Position numbers and translations under genes: made by a program
Part shown: in pieces, positions 5,434-61,022 of the stretch
Position numbering within the stretch: the stretch's first letter is position 1
How the letters are laid out: each line of letters starts with the position of its first letter
The notes under the pieces: model-generated
What the model saw: only the letters and a program-made list of their open reading frames with translations
What the model was told of the DNA's origin: nothing
The model's database searches: none
Origin: Candidatus Binatus soli
Lineage (GTDB): Bacteria; Desulfobacterota; Binatia; Binatales; Binataceae
Assembly (NCBI GenBank): GCA_002479255.1
Contig: DLMJ01000005.1
Location: forward strand, 8,664 to 72,663
Reading direction: 5' to 3'
DNA length: 64,000 nucleotides

Positions 5434-8352
5434 TCAGGCCCCTCCTTTCTCGCGATAGAGATCGCGTAGATACGTGATAGCTGGTTGCGTGTTGAGTTCT
5501 TCCAGCGCGCGATAGTTGCGCAGCTTGTTGTCCTCGCGCCGGCGCATCATCGCGCTCGCGGGCTCGTTGCTGTCGCCAAACGTGATTGCGCGCGTCGGGC
5601 ACGCCTGCTGGCAGGCCGTGACGATCTCGCCGTCGCGCAGCTCGCGATCTTCAGTCCGCGCGTTGAGCTCGGCGAATTGGATTCGCTGCACGCAGAACGT
5701 GCATTTCTCCATCACGCCGGCGCCGCGCACCGTCACGTCGGGATTGAGTTGCAGGTTCAGCGGCGCGGGCCATTCCGGCACGAACCAGTTGAATCGGCGC
5801 ACCTTGTACGGACAGTTGTTTTCGCAATAGCGCGTGCCGACGCATCGATTGTAAACTTGGCCGTTGATCCCTTCTTCGGTGTGATACGACGCAAACACCG
5901 GGCAGACCGGCTCGCACGGCGCGTGATCGCACTGCTGACACAGCATCGGCGCGAGGTAGAGCTGCGGCGCTTGCGCCGCTTCCCCGGCCGGCGGGAAGTA
6001 ACGCTCGATGCGAATCCACGACATGATTCGGCCCCGATCGACCCCGTCCTTGCCTACCGTCGGGACATTGTTCTCCGCGTAGCACGCGGTCACGCACGCG
6101 CTGCATCCGGTGCACGCATTGACGTCGATCGTCATGCCCCATTTGTGCCGGGAATATTTCCAGGGCGGGTACATTTCGTACGGCCCGGTGACTTCTTCGG
6201 CCTCGCTCCTGGGAACCACGCCGCGCGCCAACTGCTCGATACTCATCGCCTCGACGATCGATCGGCCCATCATGTCGCTCTTGCCCAGCGGTGAAACGAG
6301 CGTGCGCGTCTTGCCGGTCGCGCGCGCGGTCGCGGCGGCACTGGCCGCGCCCGCCGCCAATATCGCCCACGCATTTGCGCCGACGTCTTTTGCATAACGG
6401 CCGTACGCGCGGTGCCCCTGTCCCAAAGGAACCGCGATCACACCCGGACGAACAGTGCTCTCCACCAGGACCGGCGCCTCGATCGCGCCGTGCTCCGTTT
6501 TGATCTCGATGACGTCGTCCTTGGCGACGCCGAGTTTGCGCGCCGTCTCGGGATGGATCTCGGCCCAGCTGTCCCACACGATCTGCGTGACCGGCTCGGG
6601 CAATTCCTGCAGCCACGGCTTGTCCGCGCCGCGGCCGTCGTAAAGGAAAATGTGTGGATAGGCGTAAACGGAAAGTTCCGACTGAGCCGCGGCCGGTACG
6701 GGCGCCTTGAACGCAGACGTGTCGAGGCTGAGCGCCGAGAGATGCTGTTCCTCGAACAATCCGCCTTCGCGCCGCACGCTTACCCAGAAATCTTCGGGAT
6801 CCGCGCCGTCTGCCTTGAGAGCCAGCGCCAGCCATTCAGCTTTGACTGCCTCCGCAGCGCTCGCCCACGGAAGTTTCGCGCTCGACGATCCCGCGGCTGC
6901 CGCAAGCAGGATATCGCCGACCGGCTTGCTGTCGAACACCGGCTGCATCACCGGCTGTCCCAGTCCGCGGATTCCCGCGCGCGGCGCCGTGTCACGCCAT
7001 GCTTCGAGCGGATGATGCGCTGGCAGGAGAAGACTCGCCATCGCGGCGGTCTCGTCCGGCACGCCTCCCGCCCACACGACGAACGGAACTTTCTGGATCG
7101 CCTCGGCTACTCGCGCCGACGCGGGCATCGTGAAGACCGGATTTGCGCCCGCGATGAACACCGCATCGATCTTGCCGCCGCGCATCGCGTCAACCGCCGC
7201 GTCCACTTCATCCGGCGTGCTGGTCTCTTCGGCCGGCGAGCCTTCGAGGAACATTACGGTCTTGCCGAAATTGCCGGTGACCGCATTGAGGATCATCGCC
7301 GCAAGATGAGCCGACGAATCGTTCGTGCCCGCGATCGCCAGCGCGCCTTCGGCCCTGCCGAACGTCTCGCCGAGCCTGGTAATGGTTTCCACCGGCACGC
7401 CGGTCCGCGCGCTCGTGGCGACTGGATCGAAATTCTCGACCGCCTTGGTTAGCGCCGCGAGATCGAAGCCCGAGTTCTGCGAAACCCAGCGCTGCTTGAC
7501 GAGAACGTTGAGCACGCTCCACGCAACATCGGCTTCCACGCCCGGAGCAGTCGCAATCCAGTCGTCGCACTTCGACGCCGTCATGCTGAGCCGCGGGCCG
7601 ACGTAAGTGGCGCGGCCAATGGTCAGCGTGCCGCGCCGCTCATGCGGTGTGCGGAACAGCGAGTATTGGCGCGCGAGTTCCACCGGAGATTGCCAGGTCT
7701 CGAGAAAGTCCGCACCGAAGGAAATCAGCACTTCGGCCTGATCGATTCGATACGACGGCAGATCGCGCCGGCCAAAGATCGTTTTCGCCGCAACCCGCGC
7801 CGGTTCCTGGTTGATGGCCTCGTAAAATATCGCGCGCGACGAGCCATAAGCGCCGACAAACGCGAGCGCGATTTTCCTGAAGGTCGGGCCCTGCGGCGAA
7901 CCGAAGAACGCGACGCGATCCTTGCCCCCCTTCGACGCCGCCGCCAGCCTGTCGCCCAGCATTTTGTCCGCTTGGTCCCACGAAACGGTCCGGATCGCAC
8001 CGTCGTCGCCGCGAACCTGCGGATGCGCAAGGCGATCGGGATTGTACAGACCTTGCAGCGCCGCCTGTCCCCGGGCGCACAAAGAACCCTGACCAATCGG
8101 ATCGGCCGGATTTCCCTCCAGCTTGACGACGCGCCCTTCCCGGATTCGCGCCACCACACCGCATCCCGCCGGGCACTCCGAACACGTCGTGGCAAAAAAA
8201 CTCGGCACGCCGGGGACTACGTTCTCATCGGGCACCACGTAAGGGATCAGCTGCCTCGCCGCCGGCTCGCAGCCAGGGATCGCCGCCGCCGCACCCGCAG
8301 TCGCGGCCAGCTTGATGAATGATCGCCTGGATATCGACGGTCCCTCGCGCAT
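5434..8352 (-). CDS. actB: Alternative Complex III subunit ActB (fused molybdopterin-oxidoreductase-like domain plus 4Fe-4S ferredoxin domain, Tat-exported)
   Basis: 972 aa. Twin-arginine signal (SRRSFIKLAATAGAAAAIPG), Cys-rich N-terminal FeS motif (CSECPAGCG), large MopB-like core, and C-terminal multiple CxxCxxCxxxCP ferredoxin motifs (CTGCSACVTAC; CQQCDHAPCEPVCP; CENNCPYKVRRFN; CQQACP). Confidence 0.85.
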   Translation of the reverse strand: MREGPSISRRSFIKLAATAGAAAAIPGCEPAARQLIPYVVPDENVVPGVPSFFATTCSECPAGCGVVARIREGRVVKLEGNPADPIGQGSLCARGQAALQGLYNPDRLAHPQVRGDDGAIRTVSWDQADKMLGDRLAAASKGGKDRVAFFGSPQGPTFRKIALAFVGAYGSSRAIFYEAINQEPARVAAKTIFGRRDLPSYRIDQAEVLISFGADFLETWQSPVELARQYSLFRTPHERRGTLTIGRATYVGPRLSMTASKCDDWIATAPGVEADVAWSVLNVLVKQRWVSQNSGFDLAALTKAVENFDPVATSARTGVPVETITRLGETFGRAEGALAIAGTNDSSAHLAAMILNAVTGNFGKTVMFLEGSPAEETSTPDEVDAAVDAMRGGKIDAVFIAGANPVFTMPASARVAEAIQKVPFVVWAGGVPDETAAMASLLLPAHHPLEAWRDTAPRAGIRGLGQPVMQPVFDSKPVGDILLAAAAGSSSAKLPWASAAEAVKAEWLALALKADGADPEDFWVSVRREGGLFEEQHLSALSLDTSAFKAPVPAAAQSELSVYAYPHIFLYDGRGADKPWLQELPEPVTQIVWDSWAEIHPETARKLGVAKDDVIEIKTEHGAIEAPVLVESTVRPGVIAVPLGQGHRAYGRYAKDVGANAWAILAAGAASAAATARATGKTRTLVSPLGKSDMMGRSIVEAMSIEQLARGVVPRSEAEEVTGPYEMYPPWKYSRHKWGMTIDVNACTGCSACVTACYAENNVPTVGKDGVDRGRIMSWIRIERYFPPAGEAAQAPQLYLAPMLCQQCDHAPCEPVCPVFASYHTEEGINGQVYNRCVGTRYCENNCPYKVRRFNWFVPEWPAPLNLQLNPDVTVRGAGVMEKCTFCVQRIQFAELNARTEDRELRDGEIVTACQQACPTRAITFGDSNEPASAMMRRREDNKLRNYRALEELNTQPAITYLRDLYREKGGA

Positions 8353-54106: not shown

Positions 54107-54706
54107 ATGAAGACAGTACTCAAAATCCTGGCTGGAGTGATTGTTCTCGCAGTCGTCGCGATCGTGGGATGGCGTTACTATCAAATACATCGCGCGCGGC
54201 AGGCCGGCCTGCTCACCGAGAACATCGGGCATGACGGCAACGTCTGGAAGGCCGATTTCACCGCGCGCATCCCGGCCCCCGAGCAGACCGTCTTCACCGC
54301 GATTCGCGACGTCGAAAAAATGCACAACGATCAGGTCAAGGCGGTGCGCGTCGTATCCCAGAGCGGAAATAAAAAGACCGTCGATATGGATATCGCGGGA
54401 CCGGGCGGACAAACGATTACCACCGAGCTTGAGTTCGAGTACCTGCCCGACCAGAACAAGATCGCCTATCACACCGTCGACAATCCGCTGCTCGATACTC
54501 AGGCCGTGTACCAACTCGGCGATGAAGGCGCGAGCACGTTCATCGACTACCACGAAACCACGCATCTGCTGCAGTCGTTTCCCGTCCCCGACGGCGTCAT
54601 CAAGCAGGTCATTCGCGGCATCTTCATCGCGCAGCTCGAAACCTTGAAGCGCACCCTCAACATCAAGACCGCCGACGAGACCCCCTCCCGTGACGACGAA
54701 CCCTGA
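54107..54706 (+). CDS. membrane-anchored SRPBCC (START/polyketide-cyclase-like) superfamily protein
   Basis: N-terminal TM helix then ~170 aa with SRPBCC-like alternating pattern; assignment tentative. Confidence 0.45.
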   Translation: MKTVLKILAGVIVLAVVAIVGWRYYQIHRARQAGLLTENIGHDGNVWKADFTARIPAPEQTVFTAIRDVEKMHNDQVKAVRVVSQSGNKKTVDMDIAGPGGQTITTELEFEYLPDQNKIAYHTVDNPLLDTQAVYQLGDEGASTFIDYHETTHLLQSFPVPDGVIKQVIRGIFIAQLETLKRTLNIKTADETPSRDDEP

Positions 54707-54879: not shown

Positions 54880-55797
54880 ATGCATTTTCCAGACAGCGTT
54901 GCGCGTGCACTCAAAAAGGCTCTCGTCAATGTATTCTGGACGAAGAAAGACCTTCGCGAATTGTTTAGCCGCTGCGATGTTCCAGCCAATCTGACAAACG
55001 CCCAAGATTGGAACGGATACAAGTTTCACATCATCGATCCCGTCATTGACTCCCTCAACGGATCACCGGACGGGCTTGGACCATTACGCCGAATCCTCGC
55101 CGAAACCCTTCACTACAAAGATGGCAATCACCTTCTGTGGCTCTCGGACGGCCAGAAGCGAAAACGAGAGGCGGAAGATTCGTTGGAGCATCTGAGGGTC
55201 TTGGTCGAAAAGCACGATGCGTCGCTGGAAGCGGAACGTACGAAGCAGGAACAGCGGCGTCGCGAGCAGGACGAGAGAGCTCGAAAGCAATCGTTCTCGG
55301 AGACGCGCGAACATCTAAAGCAGCATTTCTTAACCTTGTATGCCGCGCTCGACCGGCAGCAGAGCGGCTACGGATTAGAAGATCTCCTGTACCAAGTCTT
55401 CGATCTTTTCGAATTGCAGCCGCGCGGGCCATTTCGCCTTGCCGGAGAACAGATCGACGGCGCGTTCGTCCACGAGTCGACCGATTTTTTGCTTGAGGCG
55501 AAGTGGTAGAAGGCCCCTGCAAATCTGGAAGCGCTTCGCGATCTCGATGGCGCAGTCGGGTCAAACCTGGACAATACACTTGGGCTGTTCATTTCGATCC
55601 ATGGGTACACCGGGGAAGCACTCGATCGGTATCGGCAGGGAAATCGGCCGCGAATTGTCTGCATGGACGGCGCTGACCTGATGGCCGTCCTGGAGGGTCA
55701 GATTGATCTCAACGACCTCTTGCGCCGAAAGAAGGCGATCGCCGCGCAACGAGGCGAAGTATTTGCGCCCGTTTCCAAAATAATCCTAGGAGAGATG
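54880..55797 (+). pseudogene. Mrr-like PD-(D/E)xK restriction-endonuclease-domain protein with N-terminal coiled-coil/sensor region, interrupted by an in-frame TAG at 55507-55509
   Basis: Reading through the TAG gives ...GYGLEDLLYQVFDLFELQPRGPFRLAGEQIDGAFVHESTDFLLEAKW*KAPANLEALRDLDGAVGS...LGLFISIHGYTGEALD...RPRIVCMDGADLMAVLEG. This matches the Mrr_cat layout (G..E..v..Lf...G......GDgGIDg.......iQaKry....v...v..l.G........G.liTts.ft..A.......i.LiDG..L), with the stop directly after the E-x-K catalytic motif. Lower GC (~52%) than the flanks. Confidence 0.55.
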
Positions 55798-55800
55798 TAG

Positions 55801-56811
55801 ATGACCGCGGGGAAGATTGCATGTCCGCTCTGCGACTTGAGCCAACCGCTCGCTGCCAGCTCATCTGATCCCGATGGCGATCGCACGGCGGTTCGTTGTC
55901 GGCGATGCGGGGAGTTCTCAATTCCGTCCCGGATTCCTGAAAACTGGGATATAGGACGGATACCTCAGTTTCTGCTTGAGAAGAGAGTCAGACGCTCCGA
56001 TCAGCCGCGCGGCCGCGAGCTCCTACGGAAGTATCTGTCTATCTACAGCCGTGAATGCCAGGAAACCGGCAGGCGGGCTGAATTTCCAGTACCTTTCGAC
56101 CTTTCTGAGATGGAGCTGCTAGCCGAAACCTACGCGCATACGTCTGTTCCAGACCGTGCAGATAGGCTGCTTCGCTTTCTCGCGCGACGGACTGACTACC
56201 CCGGAAAACCCGTAGGGGTAAACGCGTACTACGATTATCCTGTGCCACATGCTATCGAGGCCGAGGAATTCGACTATTATCTGGAATACCTCGCTCACGC
56301 AGGTTGGATCGAACGACCAGCAGGTTTGGACGCAAAGATCTCCGGGCAGGATCCGGAGATAGAGTACGATCGCGAAACCATCGTCACGGTTGAGGGTTGG
56401 AAACGCATCGCTTCGCTCGGCGGCGGTCGTGTCGCTTTCGTCGCCATGTCATTCGCCACGGAACTGGACGACGCCTTTCTCGAAGGTCTCACTCCGGGCA
56501 TATGCGACGCTGGCTACCAGGCATTGCGGGTAGACAAGATCGAGCATAACGAGAAAATTTGCGACCGAATCGTCTCCGAGATTCGAAGAGCCAGGTTTCT
56601 TGTAGCCGACGTGACAAATCAGCGGCCAGGCGTTTATTTCGAGGCCGGATTTGCAATGGGATTGGGCATGCCGGTCATCTGGTGCTGCAGAAAGGACGAT
56701 CTCGCTAACGTCCATTTCGACACTCGGCAGTACAACCACATCGTCTGGGAAACGCCAGCGGAGCTGCGTACCAGACTTCGTGACAGGATTCTCGCCACGC
56801 TTGCGGCCTGA
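55801..56811 (+). CDS. hypothetical protein: N-terminal C4 zinc ribbon, central unknown domain, C-terminal nucleoside 2-deoxyribosyltransferase-like (NDT/Rcl/TIR-related Rossmannoid) domain
   Basis: CPLC...CRRC zinc ribbon. C-terminal RVAFVAMSF...ARFLVADVTNQRPGVYFEAGFAMGLGMPVIWCC follows the NDT-family pattern (strand, then sDlvvA..d......GtafElGyA.alGKPvi) including the catalytic-position Glu. Starts 4 bp after the Mrr-like ORF; low GC. Confidence 0.5.
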   Translation: MTAGKIACPLCDLSQPLAASSSDPDGDRTAVRCRRCGEFSIPSRIPENWDIGRIPQFLLEKRVRRSDQPRGRELLRKYLSIYSRECQETGRRAEFPVPFDLSEMELLAETYAHTSVPDRADRLLRFLARRTDYPGKPVGVNAYYDYPVPHAIEAEEFDYYLEYLAHAGWIERPAGLDAKISGQDPEIEYDRETIVTVEGWKRIASLGGGRVAFVAMSFATELDDAFLEGLTPGICDAGYQALRVDKIEHNEKICDRIVSEIRRARFLVADVTNQRPGVYFEAGFAMGLGMPVIWCCRKDDLANVHFDTRQYNHIVWETPAELRTRLRDRILATLAA

Positions 56812-57131: not shown

Positions 57132-58427
57132 ATGATCCGCTTCAACGCAGAATTCGTAGCATCCGCGTTCGCTCTCGACGGATGCCCGCGATGGAAGCGC
57201 GCCGAGGTCGCGCTCGCCGGCCGCTCCAACGTGGGCAAGAGTTCCCTGCTCAACGCGCTCGCCGGAGTGAAGGGTCTCGCGCGGACCAGCAAAACCCCCG
57301 GACGCACGCGATGCCTCAACTTCTTCTCGGTCGGCGACACGCTCGCGCTATGCGACCTGCCCGGCTTCGGCTACGCGAAGATGGGTCATGAGGAAGCGGC
57401 CAAAATCGCTTTTATGATGCACGAATACATCCACGAGCGCGTCAATCTCGCCGCCATCGCGATTCTCGTCGATTGCCGCCGCGGTCCTCAGCACGACGAA
57501 CTCGATCTGGCGGCGATGGCCGCGGAGCGCGGCATCGAAGTAATTCCGGTCGCGACCAAGTGTGACAAGCTGCGCCGTTCGGAGCGCGCAGCCGCGCTCA
57601 AACGTTTCGACTCGATGCGCGTGGCGCCGATCTTCTGTTCGGCGACGTCCGGCGAGGGAATCGACGATCTGCGCCGCCGAATCCTTGCCGTCGATCGGAT
57701 GGATGCCGCTGAACCCGGGCCGCATAGCGAATCGAATTCTGCGACTTTCGACGAATGGCTGAAATGGGTTTTCGACCACCCGGTTGCAGAAAACACGTCG
57801 GACGAATGGTGGTGGCAGGAGCCTGACTACGATGAAGGCGGCAGGTGGTTGGACCGGCCGCCGATGCCGGCATTAGCGTTCGTTGCAAAACTCTTCGAGA
57901 ATCCGTTGCAGTACCTGTCTTGTTATAGCGACGCTCAGATCAATCAGGGTCTCGATTTCATTGTCAGTACATCCTGCTCTAAACATTTCCACTGGCTCAT
58001 AGACGGCAGAGTCGATCTTAATCTTCGAAAGCGTTGCATCCGATCAATTGAGGGTCTTTCCCGCGAGTTGTTCGCGCCGAGGTGTTCGGACGATGTCTGC
58101 AAAGGCACGAAGCCACTGGATTACATTTGCTTCATGCTCTGGGATCTTGCGATACACCATGCTTGTCACCGTGAGGATAATCCCGACGGTACTTACTCGG
58201 AGGTCCGCGATCCTGAAATCGACAAGGAATCCGTCAATACGCTCGCCCGCATAATCACAATACCAAGCCTCGCGTGTCAGCAATCGGCTCTGCATGGACT
58301 CGGCCACCTGGTTGACGACGCTTGTCTGGGAGCGAACATTATCCAGAAATATTTGGATGACCATCCAAACCTGCGTAGCGATATTCGGACATACGCGCAG
58401 CGGGCTCTGTTGGGCAAAGTACAGTAA
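57132..58427 (+). CDS. engB: ribosome-biogenesis GTPase EngB/YihA/YsxC fused to a ~230-aa Cys/His-rich C-terminal extension of unknown function
   Basis: N-terminal ~200 aa with GRSNVGKSSLLNAL (G1), KTPGRTR, DLPGFGYAK (G3), TKCDKL (G4), SA (G5). One continuous ORF continues for ~230 aa (…CYSD…CSKHFHW…CIRS…CSDDVC…HHACH…) with markedly lower GC (~52%) than the GTPase part (~66%). Confidence 0.7.
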   Translation: MIRFNAEFVASAFALDGCPRWKRAEVALAGRSNVGKSSLLNALAGVKGLARTSKTPGRTRCLNFFSVGDTLALCDLPGFGYAKMGHEEAAKIAFMMHEYIHERVNLAAIAILVDCRRGPQHDELDLAAMAAERGIEVIPVATKCDKLRRSERAAALKRFDSMRVAPIFCSATSGEGIDDLRRRILAVDRMDAAEPGPHSESNSATFDEWLKWVFDHPVAENTSDEWWWQEPDYDEGGRWLDRPPMPALAFVAKLFENPLQYLSCYSDAQINQGLDFIVSTSCSKHFHWLIDGRVDLNLRKRCIRSIEGLSRELFAPRCSDDVCKGTKPLDYICFMLWDLAIHHACHREDNPDGTYSEVRDPEIDKESVNTLARIITIPSLACQQSALHGLGHLVDDACLGANIIQKYLDDHPNLRSDIRTYAQRALLGKVQ

Positions 58428-58470: not shown

Positions 58471-59385
58471 ATGAGACCAGAAGTTTCGGTAATTATCCCG
58501 GCTTACAATCGATGCGCGATGCTGCTTGAGGCGATCGATTCCGTGCTCGCCCAATCGACCCCGGCGTTCGAGTTGATCGTCATCGACGACGGCTCGACCG
58601 ATGGGACCGCCGAGCACCTGGCGCGGCTGGCTGAAACGATCCGAATGAAAATTGACCGCATCGATCATCGCGGTCCGGCCGCGGCGCGAAACCGCGGCGT
58701 CGCCATCGCGCGCGCGCCGCTGATCGCATTCCTCGATTCCGACGATCTCTGGTCGCCGACCAAGCTCGAACGCCAGCTCGCGTTCATGCGCGACAACCCC
58801 GGCTGCGCGATCTCGCAAACCAACGAAATCTGGATCCGCAACGGGCGGCGCGTGAATCCCGGCCACCGCCATCGCAAGCGCGCCGGCGATATTTTCATCG
58901 ACTCGCTCCGCACCTGCCTGATTGCCATGTCGTCGGTGATGATACGCACCGATCTTTTCCGCTCATTTGGCGGCTTCGACGAGCTCATGACCGCCGCCGA
59001 AGACTACGATCTATGGCTGCGAATTCTCATCGACCATGAAGCCGGCCTGCTCGACGAACCGCTGGTGACGCGCCGCGGCGGGCATCCCGATCAAACCTCG
59101 GCCACGACTCCTGCCCTCGATCGCTTCCGCATTCTCGCGCTTGCAAAATTGCTCGCGGACGACCGGCTTTCCCCGGCGCGGCGAACTTCGGTGGTCGAAG
59201 TATTGGCCGAAAAATGCCGTATCTACGCGGGCGGCCTTCGGCGACGAGGCAGAATCGACGAGGCGCGACTGTACGAATCGGTCGCTGAACAGGCGCGAGG
59301 CTGGGATACGCGTGCGGCTCCTGAAATCGGATGCACGGTCAAGGCGATGCGATCCATGATTCGCGAAATTCCACATGAATGCTGA
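58471..59385 (+). CDS. family 2 glycosyltransferase
   Basis: VSVIIPAYNRCAMLLEAIDSVLAQS...IVIDDGSTDGT...AFLDSDDLW...AEDYDLWLR, canonical GT-A/GT2 motifs (DxD, ED). ATG at 58471. Confidence 0.8.
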   Translation: MRPEVSVIIPAYNRCAMLLEAIDSVLAQSTPAFELIVIDDGSTDGTAEHLARLAETIRMKIDRIDHRGPAAARNRGVAIARAPLIAFLDSDDLWSPTKLERQLAFMRDNPGCAISQTNEIWIRNGRRVNPGHRHRKRAGDIFIDSLRTCLIAMSSVMIRTDLFRSFGGFDELMTAAEDYDLWLRILIDHEAGLLDEPLVTRRGGHPDQTSATTPALDRFRILALAKLLADDRLSPARRTSVVEVLAEKCRIYAGGLRRRGRIDEARLYESVAEQARGWDTRAAPEIGCTVKAMRSMIREIPHEC

Positions 59386-59911
59386 CGAGATCGACGCGCA
59401 GATTCGGATGCTCGCTGCCGAGCGACGGCTGCCGCCGAGCCATCTTGCGCGATGGCTCGCGATGGACCCGGCGTCGCGTGCCGCGATGCTCGATATCGCG
59501 CGCGTCATCCGCCTGCGGACCGGTCAATTGATGACCGCACTGGAGACGCTTGAGGAAATCGCCGTGCGCGAGCACGTCACAGCCGCCGGCGTTCTCGGCC
59601 GCCCCGAAATCAGGCGCATTGCGGGCGGTCCCGGCTCCGCGCCGTCGCGCGCGAGCGCGCTGCTCGAAGCGCTTCGAACGCTTCGCTACCCCCTCCTTAA
59701 GAAAATGCAGGAGCAGATCCGCTCTGAAGTCTCGGCGCTGAAGCTCCCCCGCGGAATTTCGGTGGTCTTGCCCAAAGAGCTTGGCTCTGATGAGCTCACC
59801 GTTTCGCTTCGGGTGCGAAGCGCCGCCGAACTGGCGCGCCTGCTCGAGGCGCTGGATCGCTCGCGCACGGGACTGACAAGGATTATTGAAATGCTTGGCG
59901 GTAAAAGGTGA
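59375..59911 (+). CDS. hypothetical protein (178 aa)
   Basis: ORF overlapping the GT2 stop by 11 bp, Ala/Arg/Leu-rich helical sequence; no motif recognised. Real coding status uncertain. Confidence 0.35.
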   Translation: MNADEIDAQIRMLAAERRLPPSHLARWLAMDPASRAAMLDIARVIRLRTGQLMTALETLEEIAVREHVTAAGVLGRPEIRRIAGGPGSAPSRASALLEALRTLRYPLLKKMQEQIRSEVSALKLPRGISVVLPKELGSDELTVSLRVRSAAELARLLEALDRSRTGLTRIIEMLGGKR

Positions 59912-59921
59912 AAAGTGAAAA

Positions 59922-61022
59922 ATGAAATTTGACCTCGACGCCGTGCTTGTCGAGCACGGATGCGCCGGCTCTGCGCTGGCGACTCGCATCCTGCGCGCGC
60001 TCCCGCGCCATGTGCCCGTCACGCATGTCGCCGACAACGAAACGCGCGAGGCGACCAGGCCCGCATCCGGCGCGCGCGATCCGTTCGGGGCAGGCAAACG
60101 CCGGATGGTGATCGCGCGGCGCAAGACTCCGTTCCTGATGCCGTGTCACGCAGGCTCCTCCAGGTTCGCCTGCTGCGGATACCTCGTGCTCACGCTCGCA
60201 TCGAACTGCCCGATGGATTGCTCGTACTGCTTTCTGCAGGAATATCTGGCTGACAATCCCGCCTTCCAGGTATATGCGAATTTCACCGATTCATTCGACG
60301 AGCTCGACCGGCTCATCGACAACGCTCGCGGGCGCAGCTTCCGCGTCGGCACCGCTGAGCTGGCGGATTCGCTCGCGTTCGACTCGATTACCTCGATCAG
60401 CCGCGACCTGATCGATTTTTTTGCCTCGCGCGAGAATCTGACGCTCGAGCTCAAGACCAAAACCGACGAAATTGAAAATCTTCTTGGCCGGGACCCGCGC
60501 GGCCGCGTGCTCGTCTCGTGGACCTTGTCGCCGGCCGCCGTCTATCGAAGCTCGGAGCATCTCACCGCCTCGCCCACGGCGCGAATCGCGGCGGCGCGCG
60601 CCGTCCTCGACGCCGGCTACCGCGTGGCGTTCCATCTCGATCCGTTGATCGCATATCCCGGCGCCGAGCGCGATTACCTGCTGCTGATCGACGAGTTGCT
60701 GGACACTATCGCGCCCAAACAAATCTCGTTCATCAGCATGGGCGGTCTGCGGATGACGCCGCGGTTGCGCGGCGCCGCGCGCAGCCGTTTCCCCGGCGAT
60801 CCGATGCTATGCGGCGAGGACGTGCTCGCCGCTGACGGACGGTTTCGGACATTCACCCCGCTGCGCCTCAACCTCTACCGCACGCTTGCCGATCGCTTCC
60901 GAAAAGCGGGCGCGGAAATCCCCGCCTATCTGTGCATGGAAGCGGCCAGCGTCCATGAAAGCGTCTTTGGCGCGGCGCCCTCACGGCCGGCTATAATCGG
61001 CAACCGCCTCGCGCGCGACTGA
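59922..61022 (+). CDS. radical SAM protein of the spore-photoproduct-lyase (SplB)-like DNA repair family
   Basis: CPMDCSYCFLQ radical-SAM cluster motif in the SPL-like context (LTLASNC...YCFLQEYL), 366 aa. Confidence 0.65.
   Translation: MKFDLDAVLVEHGCAGSALATRILRALPRHVPVTHVADNETREATRPASGARDPFGAGKRRMVIARRKTPFLMPCHAGSSRFACCGYLVLTLASNCPMDCSYCFLQEYLADNPAFQVYANFTDSFDELDRLIDNARGRSFRVGTAELADSLAFDSITSISRDLIDFFASRENLTLELKTKTDEIENLLGRDPRGRVLVSWTLSPAAVYRSSEHLTASPTARIAAARAVLDAGYRVAFHLDPLIAYPGAERDYLLLIDELLDTIAPKQISFISMGGLRMTPRLRGAARSRFPGDPMLCGEDVLAADGRFRTFTPLRLNLYRTLADRFRKAGAEIPAYLCMEAASVHESVFGAAPSRPAIIGNRLARD

Follow-up and report, generated by a model that had tools for sequence, protein, structure and literature searches.

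A two-domain EngB GTPase in Candidatus Binatus soli: insertion of a predicted helical-repeat module and its fusion across a four-base-pair gene overlap

Canonical bacterial EngB (YihA/YsxC) is a one-domain GTPase of ~200 residues. In a 64,000-nucleotide (nt) stretch of the genome of the soil bacterium Candidatus Binatus soli (assembly GCA_002479255.1, contig DLMJ01000005.1, positions 8,664 to 72,663; hereafter the window, whose numbering is used unless another contig is named) the engB reading frame runs on, without a stop, into a further 226-residue domain that we term ext. The genomic comparisons reported here show that this fusion is a genuine feature of Ca. B. soli and of related species, and that it originated in two steps, the insertion of ext together with a 22-bp duplication and, later, a small deletion at the ATGA overlap between two genes. 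They also place ext in a large protein family of predicted helical-repeat type that is absent from Pfam.

The fused open reading frame (ORF; coordinates in Table 1) is uninterrupted, with zero internal stops, and its 431-residue product is identical to the Ca. B. soli database entry WP_428127318.1 / MGD1027637.1, which RefSeq names only “ribosome biogenesis GTP-binding protein YihA/YsxC”, the extension being unmentioned. Residues 6–184 match TIGR03598, the YihA/YsxC equivalog model, with 183.5 bits against a cutoff of 124.45 and cover model positions 1–185 of 186. The GTPase half also matches Pfam MMR_HSR1 (1.7e-16). Besides the P-loop, it contains the G3 motif DLPG (residues 75–78), the G4 motif TKCD (142–145) and the G5 motif SAT (170–172), and by eye the G2 threonine can be read within KTPGRT. 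The protein is thus not a single-domain EngB of ~200 residues, whereas its orthologues in sister genomes have 199. The 226-residue extension gave no match in Pfam, NCBIfam or PADLOC searches. It contains 9 Cys, 9 His and 8 Trp (C+H+W 11.5%, compared to 5.9% in the GTPase half), and its DNA has a GC content of 52.4% (59.9% at third codon positions, GC3) compared to 64.2% (GC3 77.8%) for the engB part. A preliminary description of this DNA had noted an EngB with a Cys/His-rich, lower-GC extension, and a complete GTPase and ext do lie in one ORF; the drop in GC is real but amounts to 12 points rather than the ~14 given there, and the junction, sought at 57730–57760, lies slightly upstream of that interval. 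A scan for promoters and terminators around the gene gave no signal beyond shuffle expectation. In the literature we found, neither a bacterial EngB with a C-terminal domain nor this Binatus gene has been reported.

Several lines of evidence establish that the fusion is real. An exact-sequence look-up lists the 431-residue product in 202 index blocks and a cluster look-up shows the identical protein called on 93 contigs, while the 90% cluster of the protein has four members, every one of 431 residues. The 24 contigs with the exact product that we read all share the same neighbouring genes; they include JGI contigs measuring 62 kb and 273 kb as well as an ENA k141 assembly of Illumina short reads (166 kb). 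Moreover, in-frame fusions are present in four other Binatus species, three of 431 residues (L011, a GTDB metagenome-assembled genome (MAG); L020, a 142-kb JGI contig; and L021) and one of 429 (L013). In L011, L020 and L021 the linker reads AVDRKKAxKTxPxSASNSAT directly before FDEW, the first residues shown of ext, while in L013 a different junction, ending in AVNPADRINRVTPEVLAT, precedes FDEW. Among the five fused genes, that of the window included, the proportion of synonymous differences (pS) is 0.36–0.73, and the ratio of non-synonymous to synonymous substitution rates (dN/dS) is 0.13–0.20 for the EngB part and 0.07–0.23 for ext. Both halves are therefore under purifying selection when fused.

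The opposing explanation, that an indel masks the true stop or that ext is degenerating after a recent, non-functional read-through, is effectively refuted and retains next to no probability. One extra base in the CCCGGG run at ~57714–57719 would indeed create an in-frame TAG and an EngB of ~198 residues, and two of the relatives with a fusion are MAGs assembled from long reads. We nevertheless reject such a single-base error because ext would then lack a start ahead of its conserved N-terminus, the first in-frame starts beyond residue 190 being at residues 240 and 245, and because 93 contigs, drawn from independent assemblies in ENA, JGI, Logan and NCBI, short-read ones included, carry the identical ORF. 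The exact length of 431 residues is, in addition, kept in four species despite pS values of up to 0.6, and the dN/dS of ext argues against decay. Thus, of the possibilities raised in the preliminary description, the genuine fusion is upheld by the exact protein and by the fused orthologues in other species, and the sequencing error near 57740 that would restore a stop is not borne out, since many independent assemblies carry the identical ORF; nor is the extension a widespread, known appendage of EngB.

That the fusion is unique was considered and rejected, the protein search having been misleading on this point. When ext alone was used as the query, as had been suggested, 64 homologues of 167–313 residues were found, mostly from Candidatus Binatus with a few from Terriglobales and Verrucomicrobiia, but all of them were standalone; the fused orthologues, whose 90% clusters have 199-residue EngBs as representatives, surfaced in DNA-level searches. 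As to whether other genomes carry the domain standalone or fused to EngB, both forms exist in Binatus together with genomes that have no ext. Metagenome contigs yielded no exact match to a 22-mer of the junction, a negative that was not relied on, the exact protein later being found on JGI metagenome contigs; contig L019 is identical to the window but begins just 3' of the junction and is hence uninformative on it.

The unfused relatives reveal how the junction was formed. In Binatus loci L001–L010 and L012 an ext homologue of 224–234 residues lies directly downstream of a 199-residue engB, and the downstream gene series is that of the window: a GT2 glycosyltransferase, a 178-residue protein (p178), an SPL-like radical-SAM protein, an Asp/Glu racemase and secA. 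At the position that corresponds to the junction these loci have a 12-residue engB tail with a GGAGG Shine-Dalgarno sequence within it and a 4-bp ATGA stop/start overlap between engB and ext; the TGA of engB is retained inside this overlap in most ext-bearing relatives. Compared to the unfused loci, the engB tail is a net 5 nt shorter in the window, L011, L020 and L021 and 11 nt shorter in L013, and each of these shortenings brings engB into the frame of ext. Junctions of the 5-nt type have lost start (ATG), stop (TGA) and Shine-Dalgarno sequence alike.

The origin of ext itself can be read from its ends. The first seven codons of the unfused ext (ATGACTCCCGAAGTTTCGGTAA, MTPEVSV) are nearly identical to those of the downstream GT2 (ATGACTCCTGAGGTCTCGGTAA, MTPEVSVIIP), and in L001 22 nt at both ends of ext are 19/22 identical. 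The near-identical starts therefore led us to expect an insertion of ext within the 5' end of GT2, a prediction that was tested on further Binatus genomes fetched via p178. In three of these, L102, L103 and L104, ext is absent and it is with GT2 that the 199-residue engB shares the ATGA overlap; the junction of the ext-less genomes, ending in gcggaggcgcgATGACTCCCGAAGTCTCAGTAATCATCCC, runs into GT2 exactly where the ext-bearing genomes diverge into ext. The empty site and the 22-bp repeat together identify ext as an insert of ~0.7 kb with a 22-bp direct repeat on either side, so that the combination of direct repeat and variable presence that marks a gene cassette is found here, with the repeat in L001 and the empty site in L102–L104. 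The insert consists of the ext ORF and 0–43 nt of spacer, ext has no Pfam or NCBIfam match and we found no mobility machinery of its own, although attC-like structures were not specifically searched for. The GC content of ext is 6–12 points below that of engB in every relative measured, fused and unfused alike. The proposal that the C-terminal part is acquired, compositionally foreign DNA is therefore upheld, but the native stop survived the insertion, contrary to one of the options raised there: the TGA is intact in most ext-bearing relatives and the fusion came later, through the 5-nt or 11-nt deletions.

In the history that these data show, the ancestral Candidatus Binatus layout had engB overlapping GT2 by ATGA, and the lower-GC ext was inserted after GT2 codon 7. 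Because the insert is flanked by the 22-bp duplication, ext thereby captured the start codon and Shine-Dalgarno sequence of GT2 and its overlap with the engB stop, and with these its coupling to engB. Small deletions in the non-conserved engB tail then removed stop, start and Shine-Dalgarno sequence in several lineages, Ca. B. soli among them, placing the two ORFs in frame. This mechanism exactly matches the known route of gene fusion by loss of an ATGA stop/start overlap, in which a short upstream tail suffers a frame-changing deletion; what sets the Binatus case apart is that the pre-insertion, post-insertion and post-fusion states and the 22-bp duplication all survive among sister species of a single genus.

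Neighbour-joining trees built from EngB and ext alone gave no resolution, and a flanking-gene tree (GT2, p178 and SPL; 836 columns) was used instead. On this tree loci without ext, with a separate ext and with a fused one are intermixed with strong support: the separate L006 groups with the fused L021 (199/200), the separate L001 with the pair of fused L020 and fused window (198/200), and the fused L013 with L103, which has no ext (189/200). The outgroup, L024, likewise carries ext. The EngB-domain tree instead unites L011, L020 and L021, which have the “KKAAKTTP” linker (169/200), in conflict with the flanking genes, where L020 pairs with the window (199/200) and the unfused L006 is the partner of L021 (199/200). 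This conflict points to a homologous exchange by which engB-ext alleles passed from one Binatus species to another. The simplest reading of the combined pattern would be that ext was lost repeatedly via the 22-bp repeats, that fusion happened at least twice and that species exchanged engB-ext alleles to some extent.

To what kind of protein does ext belong? A profile search of 1.84 billion representatives returned 2,593 clusters at 50% identity (E ≤ 1e-3), 828 of them at E ≤ 1e-30. The best 150 are mostly standalone proteins of ~220 residues; the longer members examined include six in which the domain is tandemly duplicated and at least three with leucine-rich repeats (LRRs) at the N-terminus. 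No fusion to EngB is seen among these best 150 of 2,593, because the Binatus subfamily collapses into one representative. An AlphaFold2 (AF2) model of ext with the family alignment has 12 helices and one hairpin (predicted local distance difference test, pLDDT, 89.7; predicted template modelling score, pTM, 0.88). The best PDB profile matches of the family are the ARM repeats of beta-catenin, at a borderline E of ~0.005, with the motif ACQ(E/Q)SALHGLGH aligned to ARCTAGTLHNLSHH, and the top Foldseek matches are all HEAT/ARM/TOG solenoids (CpcE/F, TOG, alphaRep, beta-catenin), though weak (E ≥ 0.012, TMq ≤ 0.40). In Pfam, the ARM and HEAT families included, no model matched the window domain or any of the 36 family members scanned. 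The models are consistent with an ARM/HEAT-like fold of all-helical repeats. In full-length numbering, the invariant or near-invariant residues include F255, C318, C333, W337, D338, C382, A386, L387, H388, L390 and H392, of which C382, A386, L387, H388, L390 and H392 are invariant within the most conserved motif, ACQQSALHGLGH.

Members of the ext family also occur away from engB. A close homologue with 60% identity lies ~60 nt downstream of a tRNA-Arg(TCG) gene in L029 and L030, and in L025 another is located between hydantoinase-like and CoA-transferase III genes; these homologues have 60–65% identity, and the close subfamily thus occupies at least three different loci. In a survey of 47 loci with distant family members engB was upstream of none, and no consistent partner was found upstream except efp (elongation factor P) in one Verrucomicrobial clade. 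In that clade (L014, L034, L036 and L096) the ext homologue is 30–60 nt downstream of efp, and in L014 a XerC-like integrase follows it on the opposite strand.

Taken together, we favor, with somewhat better than even confidence, the view that the Binatus protein is a normal EngB that carries a tethered passenger binding module. The product would be an ordinary GTPase of 50S assembly, and a flexible 18-residue linker would tether to it a predicted ARM/HEAT-like protein-binding module that is essentially a passenger, its own role being dispensable for EngB and ext in turn being independent of EngB. Fusion would be nearly neutral, easily reached from a 4-bp overlap, and would fix 1:1 co-expression. 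Consistent with this, ext is missing from some Binatus species (L102–L104), its close homologues lie at unrelated loci, none of the 47 distant loci has engB and the family is mostly standalone. The engB-ext linker varies among the fused species and is of low confidence in the full-length AF2 model (pLDDT <50 for residues 193–201), and the states of the locus are interleaved on the flanking-gene tree. YsxC tagged C-terminally with mVenus in Bacillus subtilis, moreover, shows the nucleoid-occluded localization of other ribosome-assembly GTPases (PMC9670183). Other observations weigh against a passenger role. There are at least two junction types, the 5-nt and the 11-nt, and the fusion is kept in five species, a retention that could reflect advantage rather than drift; strict translational coupling followed by fusion is, moreover, the classic Rosetta-stone signature of interacting proteins. 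When the window, L011, L013, L020 and L021 were compared to L001, L006, L031, L032 and L102–L104, the median EngB-domain dN was 0.101 for fused–fused pairs and 0.049 for pairs without fusion at a similar dS of ~0.6, and dN/dS was 0.154 and 0.084, respectively, values that come from non-independent pairs and a small sample and serve as a lead only. The raised non-synonymous rate could reflect co-adaptation of EngB with the attached domain. The full-length model was built on a shallow alignment, and its EngB half is poor (pLDDT <50 for residues 1–94, pTM 0.54).

An alternative is a functional partnership, in which ext is an accessory factor directed to EngB or the pre-50S particle, whether adaptor, ribosomal-protein chaperone or GTPase regulator, and fusion improves an existing physical interaction. 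We regard this as a possible explanation but a doubtful one. In its favor, ext is coupled to engB by ATGA in most ext-bearing Binatus genomes, the fusion was retained in at least two forms, both halves are under purifying selection, the EngB non-synonymous rate is about doubled in the fused lineages, solenoids of the ARM/HEAT type commonly serve as scaffolds that bind protein or RNA and one Verrucomicrobial clade places a homologue directly behind another translation gene, efp. Yet the coupling was inherited from GT2 via the 22-bp duplication and so did not evolve for ext, and the ext-less Binatus species, the close homologues at unrelated loci, the lack of engB upstream in the 47 distant loci and the variable, apparently flexible linker all speak against a dedicated partner. 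The more specific proposals, that this family of ~2,600 clusters was recruited in Binatus as a dedicated partner of EngB and the nascent 50S subunit, or as a module that shields EngB from a toxin, we consider unlikely. A further reading, put forward in the preliminary description, holds ext to be a Zn/Fe-binding or redox-sensing Cys/His domain that exerts metal or redox control over an essential GTPase. C318, C333, C382, H388 and H392 (C113, C128, C177, H183 and H187 in ext numbering) are either invariant or conserved to 90% and above, the two His form HxxxH on one helix and the five residues sit on three consecutive predicted helices, so that a metal site is possible. Against this, the other 6 of the 9 Cys and 7 of the 9 His are lineage-specific, the C...ALH.L.H pattern aligns to an ordinary ARM repeat of beta-catenin that binds no metal, Pfam and NCBIfam searches gave no match to metal-binding families and the His are lost in the N-terminal copies of tandem-duplicated family members. 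We therefore judge metal or redox control to be very improbable. Of the acquired metal-binding regulator described earlier, acquisition stands while metal binding and control stay conjectural, given that conservation extends to 3 of the 9 Cys and 2 of the 9 His, that the predicted fold is ARM/HEAT-like and that close homologues lie at unrelated loci.

The N-terminal 187 residues resemble EngB/YihA/YsxC proteins over the full length of TIGR03598, above cutoff and with all G motifs, and the fused gene has the same syntenic position as the 199-residue EngB genes of other Binatus genomes; the difference is the added 18-residue linker and 226-residue domain. Human GTPBP8 and yeast Mrx8 are counterparts in the same family. 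Era (KH domain), Der/EngA (KH-like domain), Obg (C-terminal domain) and RbgA are multi-domain ribosome-assembly GTPases, and by analogy the Binatus protein may be likened to them as a TRAFAC GTPase with a C-terminal module for binding nucleic acid or protein. Their accessory domains, however, are universal and required, whereas that of the Binatus protein is genus-specific, optional and of a different, predicted ARM/HEAT-like fold. The ext model is all-helical apart from one hairpin, as in ARM/HEAT solenoids (beta-catenin, the HEAT-like lyase CpcE/CpcF, alphaRep), but its N-terminal FDEWLKWVFDHP/EWWW segment and its CYMWWD motif have no counterpart there. The sporadic distribution of the family, its variable contexts, tandem duplications and LRR fusions also recall the immunity proteins of polymorphic toxins. 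One Terriglobales MAG (region L017 2198–3762, L018 2145–3709) has the ext homologue P0045 immediately behind a 283-residue Rhs-repeat ORF that ends in a DPxG-like core boundary and a C-terminal tail of ~85 residues of no known type, with more small ORFs after it, the layout of a toxin and its immunity gene and thus a likeness to the immunity proteins of Rhs/YD-repeat toxins. Adjacency to a toxin is confined to this one lineage, however: no toxin gene was found beside ext in the window or the Binatus loci, where the upstream gene is engB, nor did one turn up among the more frequent upstream families of the 47 loci surveyed, and ext matches no Imm family of Pfam.

Table 1 Features of the engB-ext locus and of the tRNA-associated ext homologue
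Feature	Coordinates	Strand	Description
Fused engB-ext ORF	57132..58427	+	431 residues plus TAA stop; ATG start
EngB/YihA/YsxC GTPase domain	57132..57692	+	Residues 1–187; TIGR03598 match, G1–G5 motifs, dN/dS 0.13–0.20
P-loop (G1) GRSNVGKS	57219..57242	+	Residues 30–37
Remodelled junction (linker) DRMDAAEPGPHSESNSAT	57693..57746	+	Residues 188–205; 18 residues
ext domain	57747..58424	+	Residues 206–431; predicted all-helical ARM/HEAT-like repeat fold, lower-GC DNA
Most conserved ext-family motif ACQQSALHGLGH	58272..58307	+	Residues 381–392; aligns to first ARM repeat of beta-catenin
GT2 glycosyltransferase gene	58471..59385	+	Probable true start MRPEVSVIIP
Surviving right-hand copy of 22-bp repeat ATGAGACCAGAAGTTTCGGTAA	58471–58492	+	First 22 nt of GT2
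178-residue protein (p178)	59375–59911		No Pfam family
SPL-like radical SAM	59922–61022		
tRNA-Arg and ext homologue (L029, L030)	2342–2418; 2480 onward		tRNA-Arg; ext homologue

The genes around engB form a conserved block, engB-GT2-p178-SPL-racemase-secA. For GT2 the candidate starts are 58294 (the mechanical ORF, which overlaps the fusion gene), 58519 (the database call, giving 288 residues) and 58471, and the last is favored as the true start because MxPEVSVIIPxYN is conserved across relatives. The p178 protein is strictly conserved between GT2 and the SPL-like gene throughout Binatus; it has 428 homologues (E ≤ 1e-5) and is named “YcaO accessory factor” in two JGI records. In L102, a genome without ext, a BrnT/CopG-type toxin-antitoxin pair (6127–6658) lies between the racemase gene and secA and is missing from the window and the other loci. 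Upstream, a ~2-kb island of lower GC content (54880–56811, ~52–58% GC) separates a 199-residue Polyketide_cyc2-like gene (54107–54706) from engB. It is present in all Ca. B. soli contigs read (L099–L101) and absent at the syntenic positions of L001, L006 and L102–L104. The island encodes a 209-residue protein with a weak match to the effector-associated domain EAD1 (E 0.003) and a 336-residue protein with an N-terminal CxxC...CxxC and a C-terminal region like TIR/nucleoside-2-deoxyribosyltransferases (Pfam 3.5e-6; PADLOC TIR effector 9.4e-10), and it looks like a small defence or conflict module.

EngB-ext adds a new architecture to a known GTPase and clearly exemplifies a gene fusion in the making; no new biochemical mechanism is shown on present evidence. 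Our analysis corrects the annotation, as the RefSeq YihA/YsxC label covers a two-domain protein of 431 residues, and it defines a widespread family that lacks a Pfam model and now has a confident fold prediction. Were ext a true partner of EngB, the repeated fusions and the doubled non-synonymous rate would represent co-adaptation, and ext would be a bacterial ribosome-assembly cofactor of the HEAT/ARM type, a kind so far typical of eukaryotes. Within a single genus Binatus displays every stage of gene fusion, from the empty site through an inserted gene that hijacked its neighbor's start and coupling to two independent in-frame fusions, accompanied by signs of allele movement between species. 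The genus thereby serves as a natural experiment in which to ask how large a cargo an essential ribosome-assembly GTPase can bear and whether fusion alters its evolutionary rate.

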